The notes under the pieces were generated by a model. The model was not told where the DNA came from. It made no database searches and saw only the letters and a list, made by a program, of their open reading frames with translations. A stretch of 59,734 bases of DNA from a virus (Duplodnaviria; Caudoviricetes), in the IMG/VR virus record IMGVR_UViG_3300008267_000087, positions 1-59,734 of that record; one strand, written 5' to 3'. Positions 9,148-39,948 of the stretch are shown piece after piece. A program made the position numbers and the translations under genes. How positions within the stretch are numbered: position 1 is the first letter of the stretch; the number at the start of each line of letters is the position of its first letter.

Positions 9148-9759
9148 TTATAATTTATAATAATTTGCAACAAAATCCAAATTATTTTCATAATTTATTT
9201 TTTGTATTATTACTTGGTATCCAATAAAGATGACTTGAATATGTTTTTCATAAGAAGCTATAAATGAATCTACAGCAGTTTTTACTTGAAGGTGCTTCTC
9301 TTGTTCCCAACCACCGCCGTAATCGTCAAAAACCATTATTCCGTGATTTTTTAAACAATAGAATGAATTAACGGCATCTTCTAAAACATATCTTGACATG
9401 TGATTACCATCAATATAGACAAAATCTAAAAATTCTTTTGTTTTCCCATAGTGATTAAATGTTTTAAAACTATTATTAGATTCACCATTAATCAGAGTAA
9501 CCCTATCACCATAAGGTTGTATGTTATTTTCAATATATTCATTTGTATTGATGTCCATAATGTAATGGTGAGAATTTGGATTTTTACAAAATTCTTCAAG
9601 TATATAAACTGAAGAACCACCATAAAGAGCACCAATCTCTAAACAGGTATTGGTTCGTTCTTTAAAGTAACCAAAAAAGCTTTCCCATAAATCTATGTTA
9701 TCACTAAAAAAGATTCTTTCATCGGGATATTTGAAATGACATGGATAAGTGTAACTCAT
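9148..9759 (-). CDS. Class I SAM-dependent methyltransferase (Methyltransf_24-like)
   Basis: LEIGALYGGS, DFVYIDGNH, VFDDY. Confidence 0.85.
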   Translation of the reverse strand: MSYTYPCHFKYPDERIFFSDNIDLWESFFGYFKERTNTCLEIGALYGGSSVYILEEFCKNPNSHHYIMDINTNEYIENNIQPYGDRVTLINGESNNSFKTFNHYGKTKEFLDFVYIDGNHMSRYVLEDAVNSFYCLKNHGIMVFDDYGGGWEQEKHLQVKTAVDSFIASYEKHIQVIFIGYQVIIQKINYENNLDFVANYYKL

Positions 9760-10376
9760 ATTTTACTATAAAAATTGTTTTGTATTCTTTGTCGCTCAAT
9801 ATTTTTATGATGTGCTATGCAATATTCTTCATCGAGAGGTAAGGATGAGAATACACTACCACCAATAATTCTTTCGTGTACTCTTCCATACCATCCCATG
9901 CTTTTACGGTATATACGTCCTTGAAAATCGGGGAAGTTAACCCAACCCTTTTCGTTTAATTTCCATCCCCATTTTTGAATATCATCTTCTGTAATATCAC
10001 TAACAGTGTTAATTCTAGGAACAAAGTATAAATCAACCTTAGGATTTACTTCTAAAATGCTGTGTAAATTTTCAACCATATACTGACTTATCATTTCATC
10101 GGCGTCTATTTGGAATATGTAATCACCTTTACAATAGCTATTCAATAGATTCTTCCAGTCCGCAAAATTTTTATCAAAATCAAAACTTCGCCAAGTTTGA
10201 ACATTCGGTAATTTATTATAAGGTAATAAAAAATCTAATACTCCAGAGTCTCCATTATTTTCATCATATAAAATTACAATCTCATCTTGTAATCTCTTGT
10301 ACTCCAGTATGAATGGTACTAATTTTTTTATCTCCGTCAATTCGTTGCAAACTGTTATCGCGTAACTGATTTTCAT
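9756..10376 (-). CDS. Glycosyltransferase family 2
   Basis: ISYAITVCNE, FQIDADE, VPRIN, FPDFQGR, VHE. Confidence 0.87.
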   Translation of the reverse strand: MKISYAITVCNELTEIKKLVPFILEYKRLQDEIVILYDENNGDSGVLDFLLPYNKLPNVQTWRSFDFDKNFADWKNLLNSYCKGDYIFQIDADEMISQYMVENLHSILEVNPKVDLYFVPRINTVSDITEDDIQKWGWKLNEKGWVNFPDFQGRIYRKSMGWYGRVHERIIGGSVFSSLPLDEEYCIAHHKNIERQRIQNNFYSKI

Positions 10377-10463
10377 ATGTTTTTTTAATTTCGTTTATTG
10401 TTAATTCTTCACATTGCCAACACCACTCTTTATCTTCGGTGTCCCATTCATGTCTATTACATT

Positions 10464-10802
10464 TCATGCTCTATTACCTCCATTCCAATTTCTTGTTAAT
10501 CTTTCCACTCCTCTAATCACTTCTTCATCCGTTTCAATTATTGTATCACTTGTTAATATATCTAAAAGAGTTTGTTCTGAATTTACTTCTTCATTTGCAA
10601 TATCTCTCATTTGTCTTAATATGTCGGCATCAATTTCCTCCGCAAGTATTCTTGTTAATTCAGCTTCAGCGTCAATCGTATATACGGTATTCAAATTATC
10701 AATCAACTCAGGTCTCCATTGAGCACGTAGTGTTCTAACGATATTTTGAATACCTTCAGATTGAATTGTTATACCATGAAAAAATTTAAACTCTCTAATC
10801 AT
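10464..10802 (-). CDS. FKFF-motif protein carrying a major capsid protein (gp23)-like fragment
   Basis: Start MIREFKFFHG at 10802. RTLRAQWRPELIDNL..YTIDAEAELTRILAEEIDADILRQM resembles the gp23 'RKLKAxWxPELAQDL...DAEAEL..IL..EI..EI' segment. Confidence 0.7.
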   Translation of the reverse strand: MIREFKFFHGITIQSEGIQNIVRTLRAQWRPELIDNLNTVYTIDAEAELTRILAEEIDADILRQMRDIANEEVNSEQTLLDILTSDTIIETDEEVIRGVERLTRNWNGGNRA

Positions 10803-11037
10803 TTTGTCTTTCTCTTGCGAATAATTTAAATACTTTACCATTATCGTTGAATGTCATTTCAGCATTGCTTGTTGGGCTTAAACGAATGTTACAATCATTT
10901 GGACCTGTAGCAAATACAACAGGTTCCTCATCACCAAATTGAAAACAAAACTCAACATTATCCGGTATAAATGTTGGGTAAGGCTGAAGAAAAAGTAACG
11001 TGGGTGTTTCATCACCTTTAAAAAATTTGAAATCCAT
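10795..11037 (-). CDS. FKFF-motif small hypothetical protein
   Basis: Starts MDFKFFKG; overlaps both neighbouring genes. Confidence 0.7.
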   Translation of the reverse strand: MDFKFFKGDETPTLLFLQPYPTFIPDNVEFCFQFGDEEPVVFATGPNDCNIRLSPTSNAEMTFNDNGKVFKLFARERQND

Positions 11038-12302
11038 TACTTAGTTTTATTTATTTTAGGTAGTATTAATTCATTATATGTAGATGGTGGTTTAGGTACA
11101 TCAATGTATGGAGTTAGTATTTTCTTAAACTCATCTTTCATTTTTTCCAATGTAAATTTTTCAGAATTTATTTTTCTTAAAGATTCTGATTTTTTTAAAA
11201 ATGAATCATATTTTTCTCTAACAATTTTAAGTGCTTGACAAGCCTGATTATAATCAACAGTAAACCATTTAGAACCTTTAATTATGAACGAATCAACTGC
11301 ACTTTCATCCACATCGGTTAAATTTCCACCAAGTAAAATGGAATCAGTTATTGATAAGAAATCTTTATGTCCAGACCAATTAGAAGCAACAACTGGTTTT
11401 CCCGTCATTGTAAATTCTAAAAGAGGTCTACCAAATCCCTCACCTTTTGTGAAGGATACCATAGTTTTAATTTTGGGATGATTATATAAATTATTCATTT
11501 CATTGTCAGTAAGCTCACCGAATAAAAGATAAACAGGAGGTGGAGACGGAACATCGGAAACAATATCTTTTATTTTTTTTCTAAACGATTCTCTTTCTTT
11601 AACAGAAAAATTAGCTGATGACGTTTTTAAGACTAATGCAGGTTGGTTAGTTTCATTTTTAAATGTTTCTGCGAAACATCTAATTAACATACCAATATCT
11701 TTTCTATCCTGCCCTAACTTACCTTTCAACCAGTGCCCAACAAAAAGATATGCAAAATCTTCTTTTATGTCTAAATTAAAACCTTCATTAACATTATTGT
11801 TGTATATTGAAGTGTCGGCACCCTCAAAAAGAACGTGAATTTTTTTATCAACTTTATGTTTCTTAATTAATGTATTTGTTTGTTTATCAATTTCATCATA
11901 CATCGTTGAAACTAAAACGTCTCTTGAAAAGTTAGATGTTGTAATCACCATATCCATTCTATTACAACCATCAACCCATTCTTTTGGTGCAACAGTTGTT
12001 TCGATTCCCGCGGTTATCCCGATATTAAATTTACCAAACCTTTGGAATTCACTCGGGATAGTCACCTGAACATAAAAATCTGGTAAACCACTAAAATTAA
12101 CAACTATGTTATCTTCAATCCATTTATGAAATTGATTGTTATTATCTAACGCTGTCATTGGTGTATTCCCCCACATACAACTATCTATTTTTATATCAAA
12201 CATATTCATTTGATATAAAGCTTCTAAAAGATCTCTGGAATGTGCACCATAACCGCTTCTGGTTTTGACTGCACCTCTAAAAAGTAATGTTGGTTTACTC
12301 AT
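11037..12302 (-). CDS. Glycosyltransferase family 4 (GT-B)
   Basis: TRSGYG, LFVGHWL, GEGFGRPLLEF, SNWSGHKDF. Confidence 0.9.
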   Translation of the reverse strand: MSKPTLLFRGAVKTRSGYGAHSRDLLEALYQMNMFDIKIDSCMWGNTPMTALDNNNQFHKWIEDNIVVNFSGLPDFYVQVTIPSEFQRFGKFNIGITAGIETTVAPKEWVDGCNRMDMVITTSNFSRDVLVSTMYDEIDKQTNTLIKKHKVDKKIHVLFEGADTSIYNNNVNEGFNLDIKEDFAYLFVGHWLKGKLGQDRKDIGMLIRCFAETFKNETNQPALVLKTSSANFSVKERESFRKKIKDIVSDVPSPPPVYLLFGELTDNEMNNLYNHPKIKTMVSFTKGEGFGRPLLEFTMTGKPVVASNWSGHKDFLSITDSILLGGNLTDVDESAVDSFIIKGSKWFTVDYNQACQALKIVREKYDSFLKKSESLRKINSEKFTLEKMKDEFKKILTPYIDVPKPPSTYNELILPKINKTK

Positions 12303-13669
12303 ATTATTTTGTATAAATTATATTTTTCTCTTGGTTTAAAATTATTTAATGCACTTTCAATTCCATTAATCATTTTATGACACATAACACCAGAAGATAC
12401 ATTATCAATCGCCCACTCTCTACCTTTCAACCCTCTTGCTTTTCTTTCTTCCTTAGTCCAATTATACACTTTTAAAATTGCATCTGCAACTTCATTGTCA
12501 TTTACTCTGTCGTCAAAAATATAAGGAGTTAATGGTGAACCATTTATATTAATTGCAGCAGGCCATACAGGTACAACCCAATCACCATGTGGCGTTTCTT
12601 TTTTATCATGCAACGAACCAAACCTTATGTAATCTTTTTCAGCAAAGTCAAATCCACATTGATCTTGTAAGCCACCAGTTACGTTAACTATAATAGGGGT
12701 TCCTGCCATAATACTTTCTGCCGTAGTTAAACCAAACCCTTCGTTACTTGCGATGTTAATAGTACAATCAACCAAATTATAAAATTCATTTAAAGTTTCT
12801 TGTTCCATTTTGTTATTTAAAAATAATACATCATAGTCAGGACAAATTTTATTTACAACAGCATATAAGTCAGTACCATTCTCATCAATAGGTTGTGTTT
12901 TCATTAACAGCAAGCATTTTGAAGATTTTTCTTTAGGTAGTTTGTCGCAAAATAATTTATATGACATAACCACATCAGATGTTTGTTTTCTCCTAATGTT
13001 TCTGTTATTATAAAAAAGAACAAAATCAACATCCATTTTATTTTTATAAATAAAATCTTTAGTTTCTTGTGAAATTTCATCAATAGGTTTGAATACACTC
13101 GGATTTATTCCGTGAGGAACATAACTAATTTGCCAATCTTCTAATGGTTTACGAACACCATCTTCCATTTTACCAACACGGTTAACAATACCATATGTTA
13201 ATTTAGATATACAACCTAACCAATCACAACTTTCATAATAATCTTTGTTGTACATAGGCTCAGGTAAATTATCCCATATATGGTAGTATAAAATTGGAAC
13301 GTGCTGTCTAATTTCATGTTCAGCATCATATAACCATTGCCAATAATGTGGATCGGTAAAATGTAAAATAGCATCAATTTTTTCTTCCTTAATCATTTTT
13401 CTGATAATACCAATATCACCATAGCTATTGTAAGGAATTATTTTTAAATTAGCATCTTTTATACCGGTTCTTTTTCTCACATCATCATTAATATCAACCA
13501 CCTTTCCTAATTCTAAATGATTCGGTGCAGCACCAATTTGAATCCAATCGTATTTGTGTAGTGTACCAATAACAAATTCTTTAGACATCGTAGCAATCCC
13601 GCTTGTAGTTCTTAAATCATCAGAAAGTAATAATATTTTCTTTTTCAATCTTTTAATATTTTGAGCCAC
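12299..13669 (-). CDS. Glycosyltransferase family 4 (GT-B)
   Basis: VPHGI, NNRNIRRK, NEGFGLTTAESIMAGTP, TGGLQDQ. Confidence 0.9.
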   Translation of the reverse strand: MAQNIKRLKKKILLLSDDLRTTSGIATMSKEFVIGTLHKYDWIQIGAAPNHLELGKVVDINDDVRKRTGIKDANLKIIPYNSYGDIGIIRKMIKEEKIDAILHFTDPHYWQWLYDAEHEIRQHVPILYYHIWDNLPEPMYNKDYYESCDWLGCISKLTYGIVNRVGKMEDGVRKPLEDWQISYVPHGINPSVFKPIDEISQETKDFIYKNKMDVDFVLFYNNRNIRRKQTSDVVMSYKLFCDKLPKEKSSKCLLLMKTQPIDENGTDLYAVVNKICPDYDVLFLNNKMEQETLNEFYNLVDCTINIASNEGFGLTTAESIMAGTPIIVNVTGGLQDQCGFDFAEKDYIRFGSLHDKKETPHGDWVVPVWPAAININGSPLTPYIFDDRVNDNEVADAILKVYNWTKEERKARGLKGREWAIDNVSSGVMCHKMINGIESALNNFKPREKYNLYKII

Positions 13670-13850
13670 TAACCGATAATTCAGTATAGTTGTTTATTTT
13701 TTCTCTAAAAACTTCATCTTTAATGTATAAGTCTATAGATCTGTTAACTAATTTTTGTAAATTAATGTTTCCATCAATCGCAGTAACTTTGAATTTTTTA
13801 TACACATCACCCAATAAATTGACGCTTGTGAGTTTTCTTTCTATTTTCAT
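13653..13850 (-). CDS. Small ribbon-helix-helix-like DNA-binding protein (putative)
   Basis: KLTSVNL strand followed by two predicted helices; first gene of the GT operon. Confidence 0.5.
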   Translation of the reverse strand: MKIERKLTSVNLLGDVYKKFKVTAIDGNINLQKLVNRSIDLYIKDEVFREKINNYTELSVSGSKY

Positions 13851-13931
13851 ATTTTATTATATATATTTTTATATACGGATTATTTAAAAAAATATCGTTA
13901 GTATTAACGATATCTTAATTTATCACGTATA

Positions 13932-14060
13932 TTATTGATTATTCGTTTGCGCCGGCGGTTGGGTAACTGTTGGGGTTTGTACTTCGGTTAATCTTATGTT
14001 TGAAGGTGGCGGTTGTACCGGTTGCTCCACTGTTTTATTTTTTTTACATCCACATGCCAT
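13932..14060 (-). CDS. 42-aa peptide MACGCKKNK... (not in ORF track)
   Basis: Read by hand; N-terminal CGC then Pro/Gln-rich; TATTTATA 14 nt upstream. Confidence 0.6.
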   Translation of the reverse strand: MACGCKKNKTVEQPVQPPPSNIRLTEVQTPTVTQPPAQTNNQ

Positions 14061-14144
14061 AGTAATAGTTTTTTATAAATATTTTGGTTTATTGATTTTT
14101 ATTTCTTATATTTTATAATATACAAAAAAAATATATAAAGTCAA

Positions 14145-14981
14145 ATGGAAATTAACAAAATTTACAACGGAGATTGTTTAGAGTTATTCAAAGAATTAGA
14201 AAATAACATGGTGGATTTAGTAGTGACATCCCCACCATATAATGTTGGTATTGATTATGATGTCCATGTTGACAATGTACCGATGGATGAGTACTTTGTA
14301 TGGGTAAAAACTTGGTTAACGGAAGTTTATCGTACTTTAAAAGACGATGGTAGAATAGCAATTAACATACCATATGAGGTAAACGTTAGAGATAGAGGTG
14401 GACGTGTGTTTATGGTGTCCGAGTATTGGCAAATTATGAAAGAAATTGGCTTTGGTTTCTTCGGTGTTGTGGATTTAGAAGAAGCGTCGCCACATAGACA
14501 TAAAACAACAGCATGGGGCTCTTGGATGTCCCCATCGGCGCCTTACATCTACAATCCAAAAGAGGCTGTCATATTAGCTTATAAGAAGGATTATATTAAA
14601 AAGGTTAAAGGTGTGCCAGAATGGGCTTATAGTGATGTTGAGATTGAAAATGAGGATGGTACGAAGAAAATGAAGAGAATGTACGACGATCAAGATAAAA
14701 CTGAATTTATGGAGCTTGTATTCGGTCAGTGGAAGTACTTTGCAGATACTAAGTCATTAACTAAAGCAACCTTCTCAATGGACATCCCAATGAAAGCAAT
14801 TAAGATTTTAAGTTATAAAGGAGATATTATATTGGATCCGTTCTCAGGTTCAGGAACTACAGCGTTGGCTGCCAAGAGGTTAGAGAGAAATTATATAGGA
14901 TTTGAACTATCGGAAAAATATGCCAATATCTCTAAACACCGCGTGGGGTTACAGGATTCTGTGGAGATCCCAAGTACATAG
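14145..14981 (+). CDS. Site-specific DNA methyltransferase (N4-cytosine/N6-adenine, beta class)
   Basis: GDCLE, VTSPPYN catalytic motif preceding the LDPFSGSGTT SAM-binding motif. Confidence 0.92.
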   Translation: MEINKIYNGDCLELFKELENNMVDLVVTSPPYNVGIDYDVHVDNVPMDEYFVWVKTWLTEVYRTLKDDGRIAINIPYEVNVRDRGGRVFMVSEYWQIMKEIGFGFFGVVDLEEASPHRHKTTAWGSWMSPSAPYIYNPKEAVILAYKKDYIKKVKGVPEWAYSDVEIENEDGTKKMKRMYDDQDKTEFMELVFGQWKYFADTKSLTKATFSMDIPMKAIKILSYKGDIILDPFSGSGTTALAAKRLERNYIGFELSEKYANISKHRVGLQDSVEIPST

Positions 14982-37014: not shown

Positions 37015-37407
37015 ATGAAAAGATTCATATTTTTCCACGGATACCAAGAACTACACCCATTATTGGATATTGATTGGGACGCAATTAATAGATTAAATAA
37101 TCTAAACACAATCATCACCCCAACATGGACAGGTACAACTTATACACCAACTTGGGTGGTAAATCCGGGTCTAGTAACTTACACACCTGGATATCATGGA
37201 ACAATAACAACAACTCCAAACTATTTTGGTGCGGGTTATGTGACAATTCCATACAATGGAACGATAAACACAACAGCAGGATTTAGTAGTTTAACGACAT
37301 CAAACACAAACGGAACAACAACATACACAACCAGTGGAATGGGCGGAACTTTAACAACAGGTACCGCAACATTTAGGAATGCTACATTTACCTCAAAATT
37401 TATGTAA
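37015..37407 (+). CDS. FKFF-variant protein (MKRFIFFHGY), Thr/Gly-rich
   Basis: Start placed at ATG 37015. Confidence 0.7.
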   Translation: MKRFIFFHGYQELHPLLDIDWDAINRLNNLNTIITPTWTGTTYTPTWVVNPGLVTYTPGYHGTITTTPNYFGAGYVTIPYNGTINTTAGFSSLTTSNTNGTTTYTTSGMGGTLTTGTATFRNATFTSKFM

Positions 37408-37874
37408 TGACTAAATTCAAATTTTTCAGGGGTTATGTGGGAACATTAGATTTAATTGATGGAGAAACGTATGCAACAGCATCAATATTTGATCCTGTTA
37501 CTTATTGGACATCAGAAGAAATTGAAATAGAACGTATCCGACGTATGCAATTGGCTAATGAGTTTGATGGGCGAATAGAACAAATGCGTAACGATGAAGT
37601 TATCTCTCATGAACAATATATGAGGAATAGAGATATATTAATTGAACAGGAGAGAATAAGAAGATTAGCAATGATAAATCACTCAAGGGAAACCGATAAT
37701 CAAATTAGATTGTATCAAGCAACAAGGGTAACAACCGTTAATCCAAAGTGGTGGATGAAGATTAAGATAGTACTTCAAGAAACTTGGTTATCGGATCCTG
37801 TTGGTATGGTTGTGATGACATTGTTGGTTTCGGTTGTTACATTTATCGGTATATTGAAATTATTTGGAGCATGA
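37407..37874 (+). CDS. FKFF-motif protein with C-terminal TM helix
   Basis: MTKFKFFRGY. Confidence 0.72.
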   Translation: MTKFKFFRGYVGTLDLIDGETYATASIFDPVTYWTSEEIEIERIRRMQLANEFDGRIEQMRNDEVISHEQYMRNRDILIEQERIRRLAMINHSRETDNQIRLYQATRVTTVNPKWWMKIKIVLQETWLSDPVGMVVMTLLVSVVTFIGILKLFGA

Positions 37875-38143
37875 TAAAATCATTCAAATTTTTAACCAAA
37901 TATGAATACCATAGGTTCAGTCCTTATTGTTGTTACGACAATGCAAAGTTTATCATCGAAACTTTAATATCGACAGACGAATGGGAAACAACCATATTCC
38001 CAAAAGAATACCCACACGAAAATGGTGTATGGAGAGTTCTTTACATACATCATAGAGACAATAGTTATCACTCCGTAGTTTGTCATGAACCAGCTAATTC
38101 AGCGCACATAGTTGAGAGATTTTTAATTAATATCGATTATTAA
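37871..38143 (+). CDS. FKFF-motif protein
   Basis: MIKSFKFLTK; ATGA overlap with the upstream gene. Confidence 0.72.
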   Translation: MIKSFKFLTKYEYHRFSPYCCYDNAKFIIETLISTDEWETTIFPKEYPHENGVWRVLYIHHRDNSYHSVVCHEPANSAHIVERFLINIDY

Positions 38144-38151
38144 AAAATATA

Positions 38152-38183
38152 TTTGGTTTTAAATATATTCTACCATATATTTG
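38152..38183 (+). promoter_or_regulatory. Bacteroidota-type housekeeping promoter
   Basis: TTTG-N20-TATATTTG just upstream of ATG 38188. Confidence 0.7.
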
Positions 38184-38187
38184 CTCT

Positions 38188-38373
38188 ATGAAAATGACAA
38201 TAAAATATCACATCGAGGCATTTGTAGATGCCCAAGAAGTAGTAATCGAATGCGATTCATTAGAACAGGCGGAGAAAAAGTTTAAAAATTATATTAGTTC
38301 AGGCTCCGAGGCTTATCTATTTAAAACAGTTAACACAGGTAAGTCCACGAAGGAAGTGTTCCTAATATCTTAA
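38188..38373 (+). CDS. Hypothetical protein
   Basis: Has its own promoter. Confidence 0.6.
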   Translation: MKMTIKYHIEAFVDAQEVVIECDSLEQAEKKFKNYISSGSEAYLFKTVNTGKSTKEVFLIS

Positions 38374-38402
38374 TAATCAGATATTTATATAAAATAACTA
38401 TT

Positions 38403-38525
38403 ATGTCGTCAAAATTTTTTAACAATCCACAACAGCCCAAGGTGGCTAAAGGAGAAAAAAAGCCTATTCCAACCAAACCGATTAAATCTAACACACAGAT
38501 TAAGAAAACGGGTAGAGGGAATTAA
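38403..38525 (+). CDS. 40-aa basic peptide MSSKFFNNPQQPK...KKTGRGN (not in ORF track)
   Basis: Read by hand; TATTTATA at 38382. Confidence 0.55.
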   Translation: MSSKFFNNPQQPKVAKGEKKPIPTKPIKSNTQIKKTGRGN

Positions 38526-38566
38526 ACCAATCTGTTTACTATTTACTATTAATAGTAAAGTAAATA

Positions 38567-38890
38567 ATGAATAGAAGAGAATATAGAAAATTACTGCAGG
38601 ATCCAAAATGGAAGATTAAGGCTTCGTTTATACGCAAACGGGACAACCATACGTGTTGTCGCTGCGGTAAAAAATCACATAGATTACAGGTTCACCATAA
38701 GAAGTACGAGGATGGTTTAATGCCGTGGGAATACGAAAATGATACGTTGGAGTCGTTGTGTTCTGGTTGTCATAAGAAGGAGCACAATATTAAACCAAAA
38801 AGGCGATTTAAGGCAAAGAAAAAACAAAAGTCTACGGAGACAACCGCAATAAAAAGCAGGGTTATTAAAATAAAAATAAACAAAGAATAA
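38567..38890 (+). CDS. HNH endonuclease
   Basis: RKRDNHTCCRCG...LQVHHKKY...LESLCSGCHKKEH. Confidence 0.88.
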   Translation: MNRREYRKLLQDPKWKIKASFIRKRDNHTCCRCGKKSHRLQVHHKKYEDGLMPWEYENDTLESLCSGCHKKEHNIKPKRRFKAKKKQKSTETTAIKSRVIKIKINKE

Positions 38891-38951
38891 TTTTTATTCT
38901 TAAATAAGTTTTATTATATTTGATAATAGAAACCCACCCAAAAATTAACCA

Positions 38952-39278
38952 ATGTTTAAATTCAAATTCCTGGTATCTAACACCAAAAAAGATAATCTTG
39001 TAGATATAATCTTTAAAGAATATCTCGATGATTTAAATGACATTGTTTATGAAATGATTGACTATAACGTCGACAATAGCGTGATAACTAACAGTGGTGA
39101 ATATTACATCACAAATGTTAGCTATCAGAATGATGTCGTTTACACCAGAGCAATATGTTATCCAAATGAATATCCCAACCTAATTATGAGGATGTCAACA
39201 TTCCCAAATGAAGTTTCAATTACAATGGGTGAAAGAGGTAACCCCTTAATCAACACTACTTTTCAAAAACACGCTTAA
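38952..39278 (+). CDS. FKFF-motif protein
   Basis: MFKFKFLVSN. Confidence 0.7.
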   Translation: MFKFKFLVSNTKKDNLVDIIFKEYLDDLNDIVYEMIDYNVDNSVITNSGEYYITNVSYQNDVVYTRAICYPNEYPNLIMRMSTFPNEVSITMGERGNPLINTTFQKHA

Positions 39279-39492
39279 TCACCATTCTTGCGGCAATCTT
39301 AAAGGTTTCACGCGTGTAACCATCATGCCCAACTTTCTCAACCAAATCAAAAGCTTGTGGGTTCTGTTCTTGACAATCCATGATTAAGATACTAGCGATG
39401 TTTTCTTCATGATCGTTACATTTAGAATCGGCATCAGCCATTTTATAAGATAGATTTACTAAGTACTTTTCGTACGCTGTTACATTTGTCAT
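39256..39492 (-). CDS. Hypothetical protein
   Basis: 78 aa ORF coupled with the gene at 39496. Confidence 0.6.
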   Translation of the reverse strand: MTNVTAYEKYLVNLSYKMADADSKCNDHEENIASILIMDCQEQNPQAFDLVEKVGHDGYTRETFKIAARMVIKRVFEK

Positions 39493-39495
39493 ATA

Positions 39496-39732
39496 TTATT
39501 GATTTTCGTTATCTCTTAAATTTAATTCAGTCATAAAAATTTCAACCCACTCTTCGTGACTTTTACCCATATATGGATCTGGAATGGTTTGTTCACCAAT
39601 TCCCGCTATGCAGTTTAAACAATTGAAAATGTGTTTATTCGTCATAAAAAATAGAGGTACATGTCTACCCCTATGGTTGCGCCAAACCACATTCCTGTCA
39701 TGTCTCTTTCCGTGAAAGAATTTATATTCCAT
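39496..39732 (-). CDS. FKFF-variant protein (MEYKFFHGK)
   Basis: Start placed at 39732; W....G....L..MTNKHIFNCLN motif. Confidence 0.7.
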   Translation of the reverse strand: MEYKFFHGKRHDRNVVWRNHRGRHVPLFFMTNKHIFNCLNCIAGIGEQTIPDPYMGKSHEEWVEIFMTELNLRDNENQ

Positions 39733-39948
39733 AAACAAATTTAGGAAATATTTTGATAATAACAAAAAAATTATTTATTTTTACAATACATATTACAAAC
39801 CCAAAATAATTAAAATGGCAAAAAGGATAATCCAAAAGAAAATTATCTATTTCAAAACCTTATTAACGGAAACAAAAGGTTTCTTTAGAAGATTACAAAT
39901 AAGGTATTTGATATGGAATGAAGAATGTAAACTAAAAAAATATAAATA

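Follow-up and report, generated by a model that had tools for sequence, protein, structure and literature searches.

Capsid proteins are normally all-or-nothing folds. Sugars decorate the virions of several viruses, including the capsid and tail of mycobacteriophages and the capsid of chloroviruses, and we know of no such glycosylation system that includes a gene for a capsid-protein fragment. In phage T4, a short N-terminal peptide that ends in the prohead-protease site Leu/Ile-x-Glu and is removed in the head, the capsid targeting sequence, is shared by unrelated internal proteins. Systems of antiviral defence that sense capsid proteins also exist, CapRel and Lit among them. According to a structural account of T4 (PMC9546572), capsomers are held together near the quasi-threefold axes by a short, negatively charged helix and a positively charged strand region, both belonging to the P domain of the capsid protein. 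Here, we describe a small gene that appears to encode this contact region as a free-standing protein. The gene (positions 10464..10802, minus strand; hereafter, the mini-gene) lies in a 59.7-kb fragment (59,734 nucleotides, IMGVR_UViG_3300008267_000087; hereafter, the window) of a Caudoviricetes virus record rated 18% complete; the phage is giant, uncultured, and from freshwater. It is an intact open reading frame (ORF) of 112 amino acids (aa) plus a stop codon, in which a short FKFF label is followed by a capsid-protein-derived segment. The mini-gene is small but functional, and it originated when part of the T4-type major capsid protein of its own lineage was copied. This lineage places the FKFF label on about a dozen other small proteins.

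A preliminary description made from the sequence letters alone had recognized an FKFF-tagged ORF with a gp23-like fragment, and the profile comparisons bear this out. The Pfam family Gp23 (PF07068) matched residues 10-65 of the product at profile positions 135-194 of 376, with 30.4 bits against a curated cut-off of 24.4 (E = 3.6e-7), and was recovered at 29.9 bits in a six-frame search of the record; relatives score as high as 75 bits, and a weak second stretch in the window's mini-gene (E = 0.06) extends to profile position 209. PHROG 138 ("major head protein") matched with E = 6.5e-6. A profile built from the mini-gene family aligned with chains of T4 gp23 at E values of 2e-9 to 3e-9 and, weakly, with those of gp24 (E = 0.02). 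Comparison of the family with the capsid proteins of the lineage using hhalign yielded a probability of 99.3 and an E value of 6.9e-21 for an alignment colinear with capsid residues 346-431, which takes in the tail (...DYL..W..IG.N.A in the long forms). Over 58 aa, the window's product shares 45% identity with the capsid protein of a relative (residues 349-406; BLASTP), and in the related 335-kb record G001, the mini-gene product is 51% identical over 57 aa to residues 349-405 of that phage's own capsid protein. A tblastn search against 50,697 phage records matched 544 of these, at one place each and always below 60% identity; the best 40 of the 544 matches all fall on capsid genes, at the syntenic place (37 of them carry the annotation major capsid or head protein, two are hypothetical proteins by annotation, and one belongs to an unannotated record). 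The likeness to gp23 is beyond chance.

The product does not, however, qualify as a functional T4-type major capsid protein. As the preliminary description had pointed out, it is far too short (112 aa against about 450-600 aa), and its colinearity with a 591-aa capsid protein is confined to residues 346-431. Length and profile coverage also set it apart from vertex paralogs of the gp24 type. The gene is not part of a head module either: in the phages S-CRM01, Moon, S-N03, and P-HM1, the capsid gene comes after the scaffold gene, whereas the mini-gene lies among glycosyltransferase genes.

The segment that was copied can be delimited by comparison with T4. The profile of the mini-gene family aligns without gaps to gp23 residues 251-314 (numbering of chain 6uzc). 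In PMC9546572, the head-length mutations A268V, A275T, D285V, and D287V/N adjoin the short P-domain helix, and the gp31-bypass substitutions G292S, V306I, and V307I lie in the spine helix. All seven wild-type letters of these sites fall at the right numbers in the profile alignment (counted by hand), and the register is therefore right. With the names of structural elements carried over from the same paper, R23-T-L-R-A-Q-W29 of the window's product corresponds to the basic strand, P31-E-L-I-D-N-L37 to the short acidic helix, and the region from about residue 45 to the spine helix. Together with the intervening loop, the strand, the short helix, and the start of the spine helix make up the capsid-like core (residues 11-57; 10632..10772, minus strand). 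The core is preceded by the label (residues 1-10, MIREFKFFHG; 10773..10802, minus strand), which is common to other small ORFs. It is followed by a 34-residue insertion (residues 58-91; 10530..10631, minus strand) that occurs in the window's subfamily only and is absent from the 79-80 aa core form, and then by the helix end and a tail conserved in the family (...LTRNWNGGNRA; residues 92-112, with an invariant D92; 10467..10529, minus strand). Among 17 closer members, R23, L25, D44, E48, L49, and R51 do not vary, and R26 and E32 hardly do. By this alignment, the copied segment is the equivalent of T4 gp23 251-314, the stretch with the intercapsomer contact region, plus the loop that follows it.

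The insertion may repeat the helix in degenerate form. The second Gp23 stretch (E = 0.06) and an hhalign alignment of residues 67-112 to capsid residues 381-406 (E = 0.11, probability 0.5%) are both weak, and BLASTP comparison of the window's product with itself gave no match that would indicate an internal helix duplication. The AlphaFold monomer model of the product, of low confidence with a mean pLDDT (predicted local distance difference test) of 62, agrees with this assignment in placing helices at residues 34-40, 45-84, and 92-106; values are below 50 for residues 1-17. The capsid protein of the lineage, modeled from a shallow alignment, reached a mean of 43.5, with residues 335-591 below 50, too poor for structural elements to be named from it; its one confident region, beta-rich and in the middle (about 160-335), is presumably the insertion domain. 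Co-folding of the 80-aa form of the mini-protein (27-sequence alignment) with the 591-aa capsid protein of the same genome (22 sequences) scored 0.00 in two runs made without controls and counts neither way.

Related records of up to 335 kb allow the mini-gene and the capsid gene to be compared within one genome. G001 (335,630 bases, rated 100% complete) and G002 (316,007 bases, 95%) each carry one full-length Gp23-family gene and a distant mini-gene; the 591-aa capsid protein of G001 is encoded at 125 kb, and the mini-gene lies at 303 kb. A partial record (G003) has the mini-gene only, without a full-length capsid gene, so that all three lineage records searched contain the mini-gene. In the 59.7-kb window, a six-frame Gp23 profile search found no full capsid gene. 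Conservation is far higher in the capsid protein of the lineage (573-594 aa; 78-93% identity within the 120 best database relatives) than in the mini-gene or in the transferases. A maximum-likelihood tree was built from the 62 best-aligned columns of 39 rows, none of which was dropped, a number of columns that the program flags as small. In this tree, all 23 mini-gene products fall within a well-supported clade (98/94) that also takes in the capsid proteins of this lineage, of Flavobacterium phage immuto, of Microcystis phage Mel-JY01, and of two huge uncultured phages; the capsid proteins of the T4-type phage Moon, of three cyanophages, and of contig locus L046 lie outside. There is no resolution within the clade, where the mini-gene products form one side of a weakly supported branch (69/87). 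Because they group with the capsid proteins of the lineage to the exclusion of those of Moon and the cyanophages, the mini-gene is an old partial copy of a capsid gene of this phage clade and was not captured from a distant T4-type phage.

The mini-gene is widespread and maintained. A protein database search identified 481 short homologs (61-196 aa, E ≤ 0.01), and all 120 of these that were listed have a precomputed Gp23 match. Two scans of viral contigs yielded 51 loci. A short frame is open across the match in 50 of them (76-137 residues from stop to stop), and the remaining one, L046, is a true capsid gene of 452 aa. Ratios of nonsynonymous to synonymous substitution rates (dN/dS) were estimated by the Nei-Gojobori method for 25 distinct genes, giving 300 pairs, not independent of one another, of which 292 were usable. 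The ratio is below 1 in all 292 pairs (median 0.41, maximum 0.82; 0.03-0.46 in the nine closest pairs), and the mini-gene is under purifying selection. Medians for flanking genes of the same loci are 0.096 for a family 2 glycosyltransferase (GT2) and 0.151 for the second of two family 4 glycosyltransferases (GT4b). The preliminary description had asked whether the ORF might be a decaying pseudogene; the frame is intact at all 50 short loci, selection is purifying, and gene order is kept in 45 of the 51 loci, unlike what is expected of a decaying fragment. Near-identical DNA was found in sequencing runs from five freshwater, lake, and estuary studies; there was no RNA dataset among the 23 runs listed with matching DNA, and the searches made did not retrieve a cultured member of the mini-gene family. 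A fused, longer form was sought among 247 candidates, and the single protein found (P0243, 215 aa), encoded on a contig of 1 kb, gives the impression of a frame that begins upstream and continues into the mini-gene.

The FKFF label is a feature of the lineage in its own right. ORFs of at least 60 aa in the window contain 11 F[KR]FF sites, nine of which stand within five residues after a Met, where placement without regard to position would give 1.15; for G001, 13 of 14 sites come just after Met, against 1.29 expected on the same basis. The two other sites in the window are C-terminal. Since the Phe and Lys codons of the 11 window copies vary synonymously, FKFF is selected as a peptide motif; the same variation rules out a signal at the DNA level. 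Across 36 members of the mini-gene family, F5 is invariant and F7, F8, and G10 are at least 90% conserved, and the label residues are conserved at least as well as the capsid-like positions W29, E48, L49, R51, and I57. Most of the labeled genes of G001 (11 of 13) form a tandem array at 5.8-17.2 kb, and the other two stand side by side in the sugar operon. The window, too, has a tandem array (37407-46402, plus strand) in which the small genes all begin with M-x(1-3)-FKFF. In the G001 array, each gene ends within the Phe-Lys codons of its downstream neighbor, where the stop codon of the former lies (...NETI-stop over MKPFKFF). FKFF is C-terminal instead in two membrane-type proteins.

Several explanations of the label were considered. 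A sliding-clamp-binding motif, an idea that starts from a likeness of FKFF to the T4 polymerase tail, gained no support: the G001 DNA polymerase ends differently, and no match to the gp45 family was obtained. Homology of FKFF to the capsid strand that precedes the copied segment is not supported, the profile alignment beginning after the label, and neither is a protease-site leader, the labels sharing no residue that resembles a cleavage site (Glu precedes FKFF in the mini-gene product, M-I-R-E, but not in most labeled paralogs). A 157-aa FKFF protein of the G001 array (L062:1465-1938; G001 12980-13453) showed a weak match to the N-terminal part of Gp23 (18.9 bits, below the cut-off; profile positions 8-89) and contains the motif ...IAQDLVPVQPL.... 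A labeled ORF of 133 aa in the window (40989-41390) contains ...RTIAQDL... and has no Pfam match. Apart from the mini-gene product, the seven labeled window proteins tested gave no match to Gp23. A search for FKFF as a whole word in the literature, which did not cover subscription journals, returned no relevant paper among those listed.

The position of the mini-gene within a glycosyltransferase operon, noted in the preliminary description, is evident from the co-directional, overlapping sugar genes around it. Directly upstream are two GT4 genes (456 and 421 aa; 11037..13669, minus strand; Pfam Glycos_transf_1, GT4-conflict), which are about 63-74% identical across loci, and directly downstream is the GT2 gene (9756..10376, minus strand; Pfam Glycos_transf_2 at the cut-off). 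Two small ORFs overlap the mini-gene. The upstream one encodes an 80-aa FKFF-labeled protein (MDFKFFKG...; 10795..11037, minus strand) and overlaps it by 8 bases; this ORF is present in 33 of the 45 loci that share the gene order, showed a weak PKD match only (Pfam, E = 0.15), and gave no named neighbor in the Atlas search. In L051 and L052 (7929-8261), this 80-aa neighbor is almost wholly deleted and its label is fused in frame to the mini-gene, so that the fused product bears two FKFF labels (MDFKFF... and then ...NDFKFFHG...). The downstream ORF (61 aa, Cys-rich; 10282..10467, minus strand) overlaps the mini-gene by 4 bases and also the start of the GT2 gene; tblastn matches to it were found in 22 of the 45 syntenic loci, a conservation that may be partly due to the overlapping GT2 frame. 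The stop codon of the mini-gene is at 10464-10466. Its start is likely at 10802, giving a product that begins with MIREFKFFHG, rather than at an ATG at 10841, from which a 125-aa frame runs into the upstream gene; 10802 is preferred because homologs that lack the upstream 80-aa gene retain only the Met directly before the label. Further downstream, in the same direction, follow genes for a methyltransferase, a DegT-type aminotransferase, a PhyH dioxygenase, a KAS III enzyme, a short-chain reductase, and a GNAT protein. By this arrangement, the mini-gene is translationally coupled within an operon of sugar-building and glycosyltransferase genes.

The operon is headed by a 65-aa ORF (13653..13850, minus strand) that matched no Pfam family at E values up to 1 and, by eye, resembles small ORFs that head the island in contig L045 and in phage immuto. 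Between this ORF and a small CGCKK ORF, there is an inverted repeat on the minus strand (13887-13925), ATATCGTTA, a 5-base loop, and TAACGATAT, followed by a T run, which could be a terminator or an operator heading the sugar operon. The T4 late promoter motif TATAAATA was tried as a guide to the timing of the operon and discarded, its 13 sites comparing with 15 expected by chance.

The order GT4a-GT4b-(FKFF80)-mini-(Cys61)-GT2 is shared by 45 of the 51 loci; the GT2 gene is found in 43 of these 45, and the remaining two stop short of its position. Among the syntenic loci, the transferases are about 63-79% identical to those of the window, and the mini-gene products 31-74%. Of the six loci without this order, one is the true capsid gene L046, and the other five (L030, L031, L043, L044, and L045) come from other lineages. 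One of these is informative about the island itself. L045 shares the head of the island with the window (window 13932-14981; L045:6513-7941) and encodes an N6/N4 DNA methylase that is 77% identical to that of the window and divergent in the same way. In both, the methylase is followed by a small ORF that starts M-x-CGCKK and is rich in Pro, Gln, and Thr, and then by an ORF of 65-67 aa (...KLTSV...LQK.VNR.IDLY...). Given the methylase and the same two small leader ORFs, L045 carries the same genomic island as the window. An ORF of the 65-67 aa type also heads the glycosyltransferase module of phage immuto. The transferases of L045 belong to other families (Glyco_tranf_2_4/GT92 and Glyco_tranf_2_5), and just before them, with a 4-base overlap, is a capsid-derived mini-gene of 112 aa and another build (Pfam Gp23, 72.7 bits), in which the spine helix leads straight into ...QDLVPVQPM.GP.G..YLDY, similar to the N-terminal conserved motif of the capsid protein. 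The island thus retains a capsid mimic through the exchange of its enzymes. In L053, the tail of the mini-gene product contains a Thr-rich insert of about 45 residues, read by eye as a possible O-glycan site.

We tentatively propose that the mini-gene product is a mimic of the capsid edge that docks on the shell in the service of the sugar island, a reading that we put first while giving it clearly less than even odds. Because the product bears both the basic strand and the acidic helix, which are the two partners in the contact between capsid subunits, the free protein could dock on a capsid subunit or capsomer edge by imitating a neighbor. On its own, it would be largely unfolded apart from the helix and would fold on binding. 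Because the gene is kept in the sugar island, the product would be the capsid-docking part of that island, either bringing the enzymes to the shell as an adaptor or sitting on the shell as a glycan carrier. The preliminary description had offered a decoy, an assembly modulator, and an adaptor as possible roles. The context favors the adaptor-like version, as the mini-gene is fixed in the island in 45 of 51 loci and a capsid-derived mini-gene is kept where the transferases have been replaced.

Several observations weigh against this proposal. The 45 syntenic loci represent one lineage and L045 has the same genomic island, so truly independent associations of a mini-gene with sugar genes are few. 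Phages immuto and Mel-JY01, the nearest cultured relatives, have the GT4-GT4-GT2 module without a mini-gene, and the transferases therefore do not need it; in immuto, the slot between GT4b and GT2 is occupied by an unrelated 152-aa Cys-rich protein, and in Mel-JY01, it is empty. A second type of mini-gene (132-147 aa), found on eight distinct contigs (L030, L043, L044, L091-L094, and L096; L031 is the same protein as in L030 on another contig, and L090 and L095 are the L044 and L030 contigs again), is not beside transferases and instead follows a Mom-family DNA-modification gene and a gene for a 300-aa protein of no known family; a GT2-like ORF, read by eye, occurs in L030 only, about 2 kb away. 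The mini-gene evolves about three to four times faster than its neighbors (0.41 against 0.10-0.15), tolerates many insertions and deletions, with hairpin or loop deletions at several loci, and in L006 has lost the core motifs while keeping the label. The label, as the best-conserved part, may carry the main function in place of the capsid-like segment. Furthermore, the island could modify DNA or the host surface rather than the virion: a DNA methylase neighbors it, and phage transferases that glycosylate DNA are described in a preprint (10.1101/2023.12.21.572611).

A possible but somewhat doubtful alternative is that the fragment modulates capsid assembly or size by competing for or tuning the intercapsomer contact, either helping a large shell or poisoning related co-infecting phages while the phage's own capsid is spared. 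The copied segment is where, according to PMC9546572, head-length mutations of T4 cluster and capsomers are fastened. The mini-gene is present in the three searched records of the lineage of about 330 kb and was not found in its relatives immuto and Mel-JY01 (160-190 kb) by tblastn, which gave one place per record, the listed ones on capsid genes. Its fast evolution relative to its neighbors is expected in a conflict, and the capsid protein itself stays 78-93% identical across the lineage, with 31% to 74% for the mini-gene product. Large size does not require a mini-gene, however, given that phages of 484 and 595 kb with related capsid proteins were not double tblastn hits. It would also be costly for a phage to make a dominant-negative piece of its own capsid protein, and modulation leaves the fixed place in the sugar operon unexplained.

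It is unlikely that the product is a decoy or blocker of host defenses that sense the major capsid protein, occupying the sensor without triggering it. The segment is among the best conserved of T4-type capsid proteins, as would be expected of one that a sensor reads; the mini-gene evolves fast; and most FKFF paralogs lie in an accessory-type array of small genes (11 of the 13 in G001, at 5.8-17.2 kb). Yet a faithful copy of a trigger should activate the sensor, not silence it, and the operon context is one of sugar chemistry rather than of an anti-defense island; a match to a defense-related family did not turn up, though no search aimed at one was made. Lit, which the preliminary description gave as an example of such a sensor, fits poorly, because its trigger is the Gol peptide, at about residues 93-122 of T4 gp23, and the mini-gene corresponds to residues 251-314.

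We also regard as improbable that the label sets the function and the capsid-like part is one cargo or scaffold of many, the label directing small proteins to a common site such as the prohead interior, the membrane, a chaperone, or a protease. This would agree with the label residues being the most conserved positions of the family, with selection at the peptide level, and with the heterogeneity of the labeled proteins (nine N-terminal and two C-terminal labels in the window, and 13 N-terminal labels in G001), one of which, in G001, is a second protein with a Gp23 match, the weak N-terminal one below the cut-off. The labels, though, lack a common cleavage-site-like residue, the seven other labeled proteins of the window have no Gp23 match, and the clamp-binding idea found no support.

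Very improbable is a role in folding, with the spine helix, as a free element, either entering the GroEL/gp31-type folding route or serving as a template on which the P domain folds. The product covers the gp31-bypass positions G292S, V306I, and V307I reported in PMC9546572, but this evidence is purely positional, the operon context is left unexplained, and relatives fold a very similar capsid protein without a mini-gene. Finally, a non-functional remnant or gene-calling artifact, suggested by the shortness of the gene, the loss of core motifs in L006, the many hairpin and loop deletions and insertions, and a dN/dS above that of the neighbors, is close to refuted by the open frame at 50 of 50 short loci, a dN/dS below 1 in all usable pairs, the 481 homologs, the strict synteny, and the coupling of start and stop to the neighboring genes.

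Other stand-alone parts of capsid proteins were encountered on the contigs with the second type of mini-gene. The Mom-family gene (Pfam PF25680, 182 bits; L044:5987-6781 and counterparts) lies two genes upstream of this mini-gene. Directly upstream of the mini-gene is an 81-aa ORF (L044:7700-7945, plus strand) that is a stand-alone C-terminal part of the capsid protein (Pfam Gp23, 25.7 bits against the cut-off of 24.4; profile positions 303-366 of 376), intact and 68-73% identical in four of the eight contigs (L044, L043, L092, and L093). In three contexts, capsid-fragment genes neighbor DNA- or sugar-modification genes. With considerable reservation, we consider a broader proposal, that aquatic T4-related phages have a class of free-standing capsid pieces that would act in trans as ligands of the capsid lattice, docking as mimics of a neighbor and directing modification machinery or a glycan to the virion. 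The pieces in question would be the middle part (the mini-gene of the window), the C-terminal 81 aa (L044), a rearranged spine helix with the N-terminal VQP motif (L045 and the L030 type), and possibly an N-terminal part behind FKFF. If this is true, a capsid-targeting principle would be built from the capsid protein itself, with sugars above all as the cargo.

In the literature searched, which did not extend to subscription journals, no description of free-standing capsid-protein fragments or of the FKFF label was found; per that search, a conserved, selected gene consisting only of the capsomer-edge contact and the spine helix is a kind of phage protein not described before. Should the fragment dock on the shell, it would help to explain how the large heads of T4-type phages are held together and their size is set, hint for the first time at the target of the sugar islands that are widespread and ever-changing in aquatic phages, and supply a minimal tag of natural origin that binds capsids and could serve for display on T4-type heads. 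Should it instead be a decoy or an interference factor, the conflict of phages with hosts or with each other would gain a novel kind of molecular mimicry. Because the family is abundant (481 short homologs, and matching DNA in five studies of freshwater, lakes, and estuaries), it is ecologically relevant and easy to sample.

Among known systems, the closest is T4 gp23 itself (PF07068, HK97 fold; PDB 6UZC, 5VF3, and 8GMO), which resembles the mini-gene product over the strand (basic) and the short helix (acidic) of the P domain and over the spine helix. With the capsid proteins of its phage clade, the mini-gene product also has derived residues in common. It differs from gp23 in size (112 aa, or 79-80 aa in the core form, against 450-600 aa), in lacking the N-arm, the insertion domain, the A domain, and the C-terminal strands, in the location of its gene far from the head module (in G001), and in its unrelated N-terminal label. 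The vertex protein gp24 of T4 is, like the mini-gene, a duplicate of the capsid gene kept for a separate role, but gp24 is a full-length HK97 fold that forms pentamers, whereas the mini-gene product is a fragment unable to form that fold. The FKFF label recalls the T4 capsid targeting sequence in that both are short peptides shared by unrelated small proteins of one phage; unlike the targeting sequence, the FKFF labels have no common Glu, and two of them are at C-termini. The likeness to Soc of T4, a small protein that clamps capsomers by binding between them, close to the quasi-threefold axes (PMC9546572), is confined to the proposed mode of action, and we claim no relation in sequence or fold. 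The island, for its part, resembles phage virion glycosylation systems, as suggested for mycobacteriophage capsids (PMC11256854), in that it combines virus-encoded sugar-building enzymes with transferases that could act on the virion.

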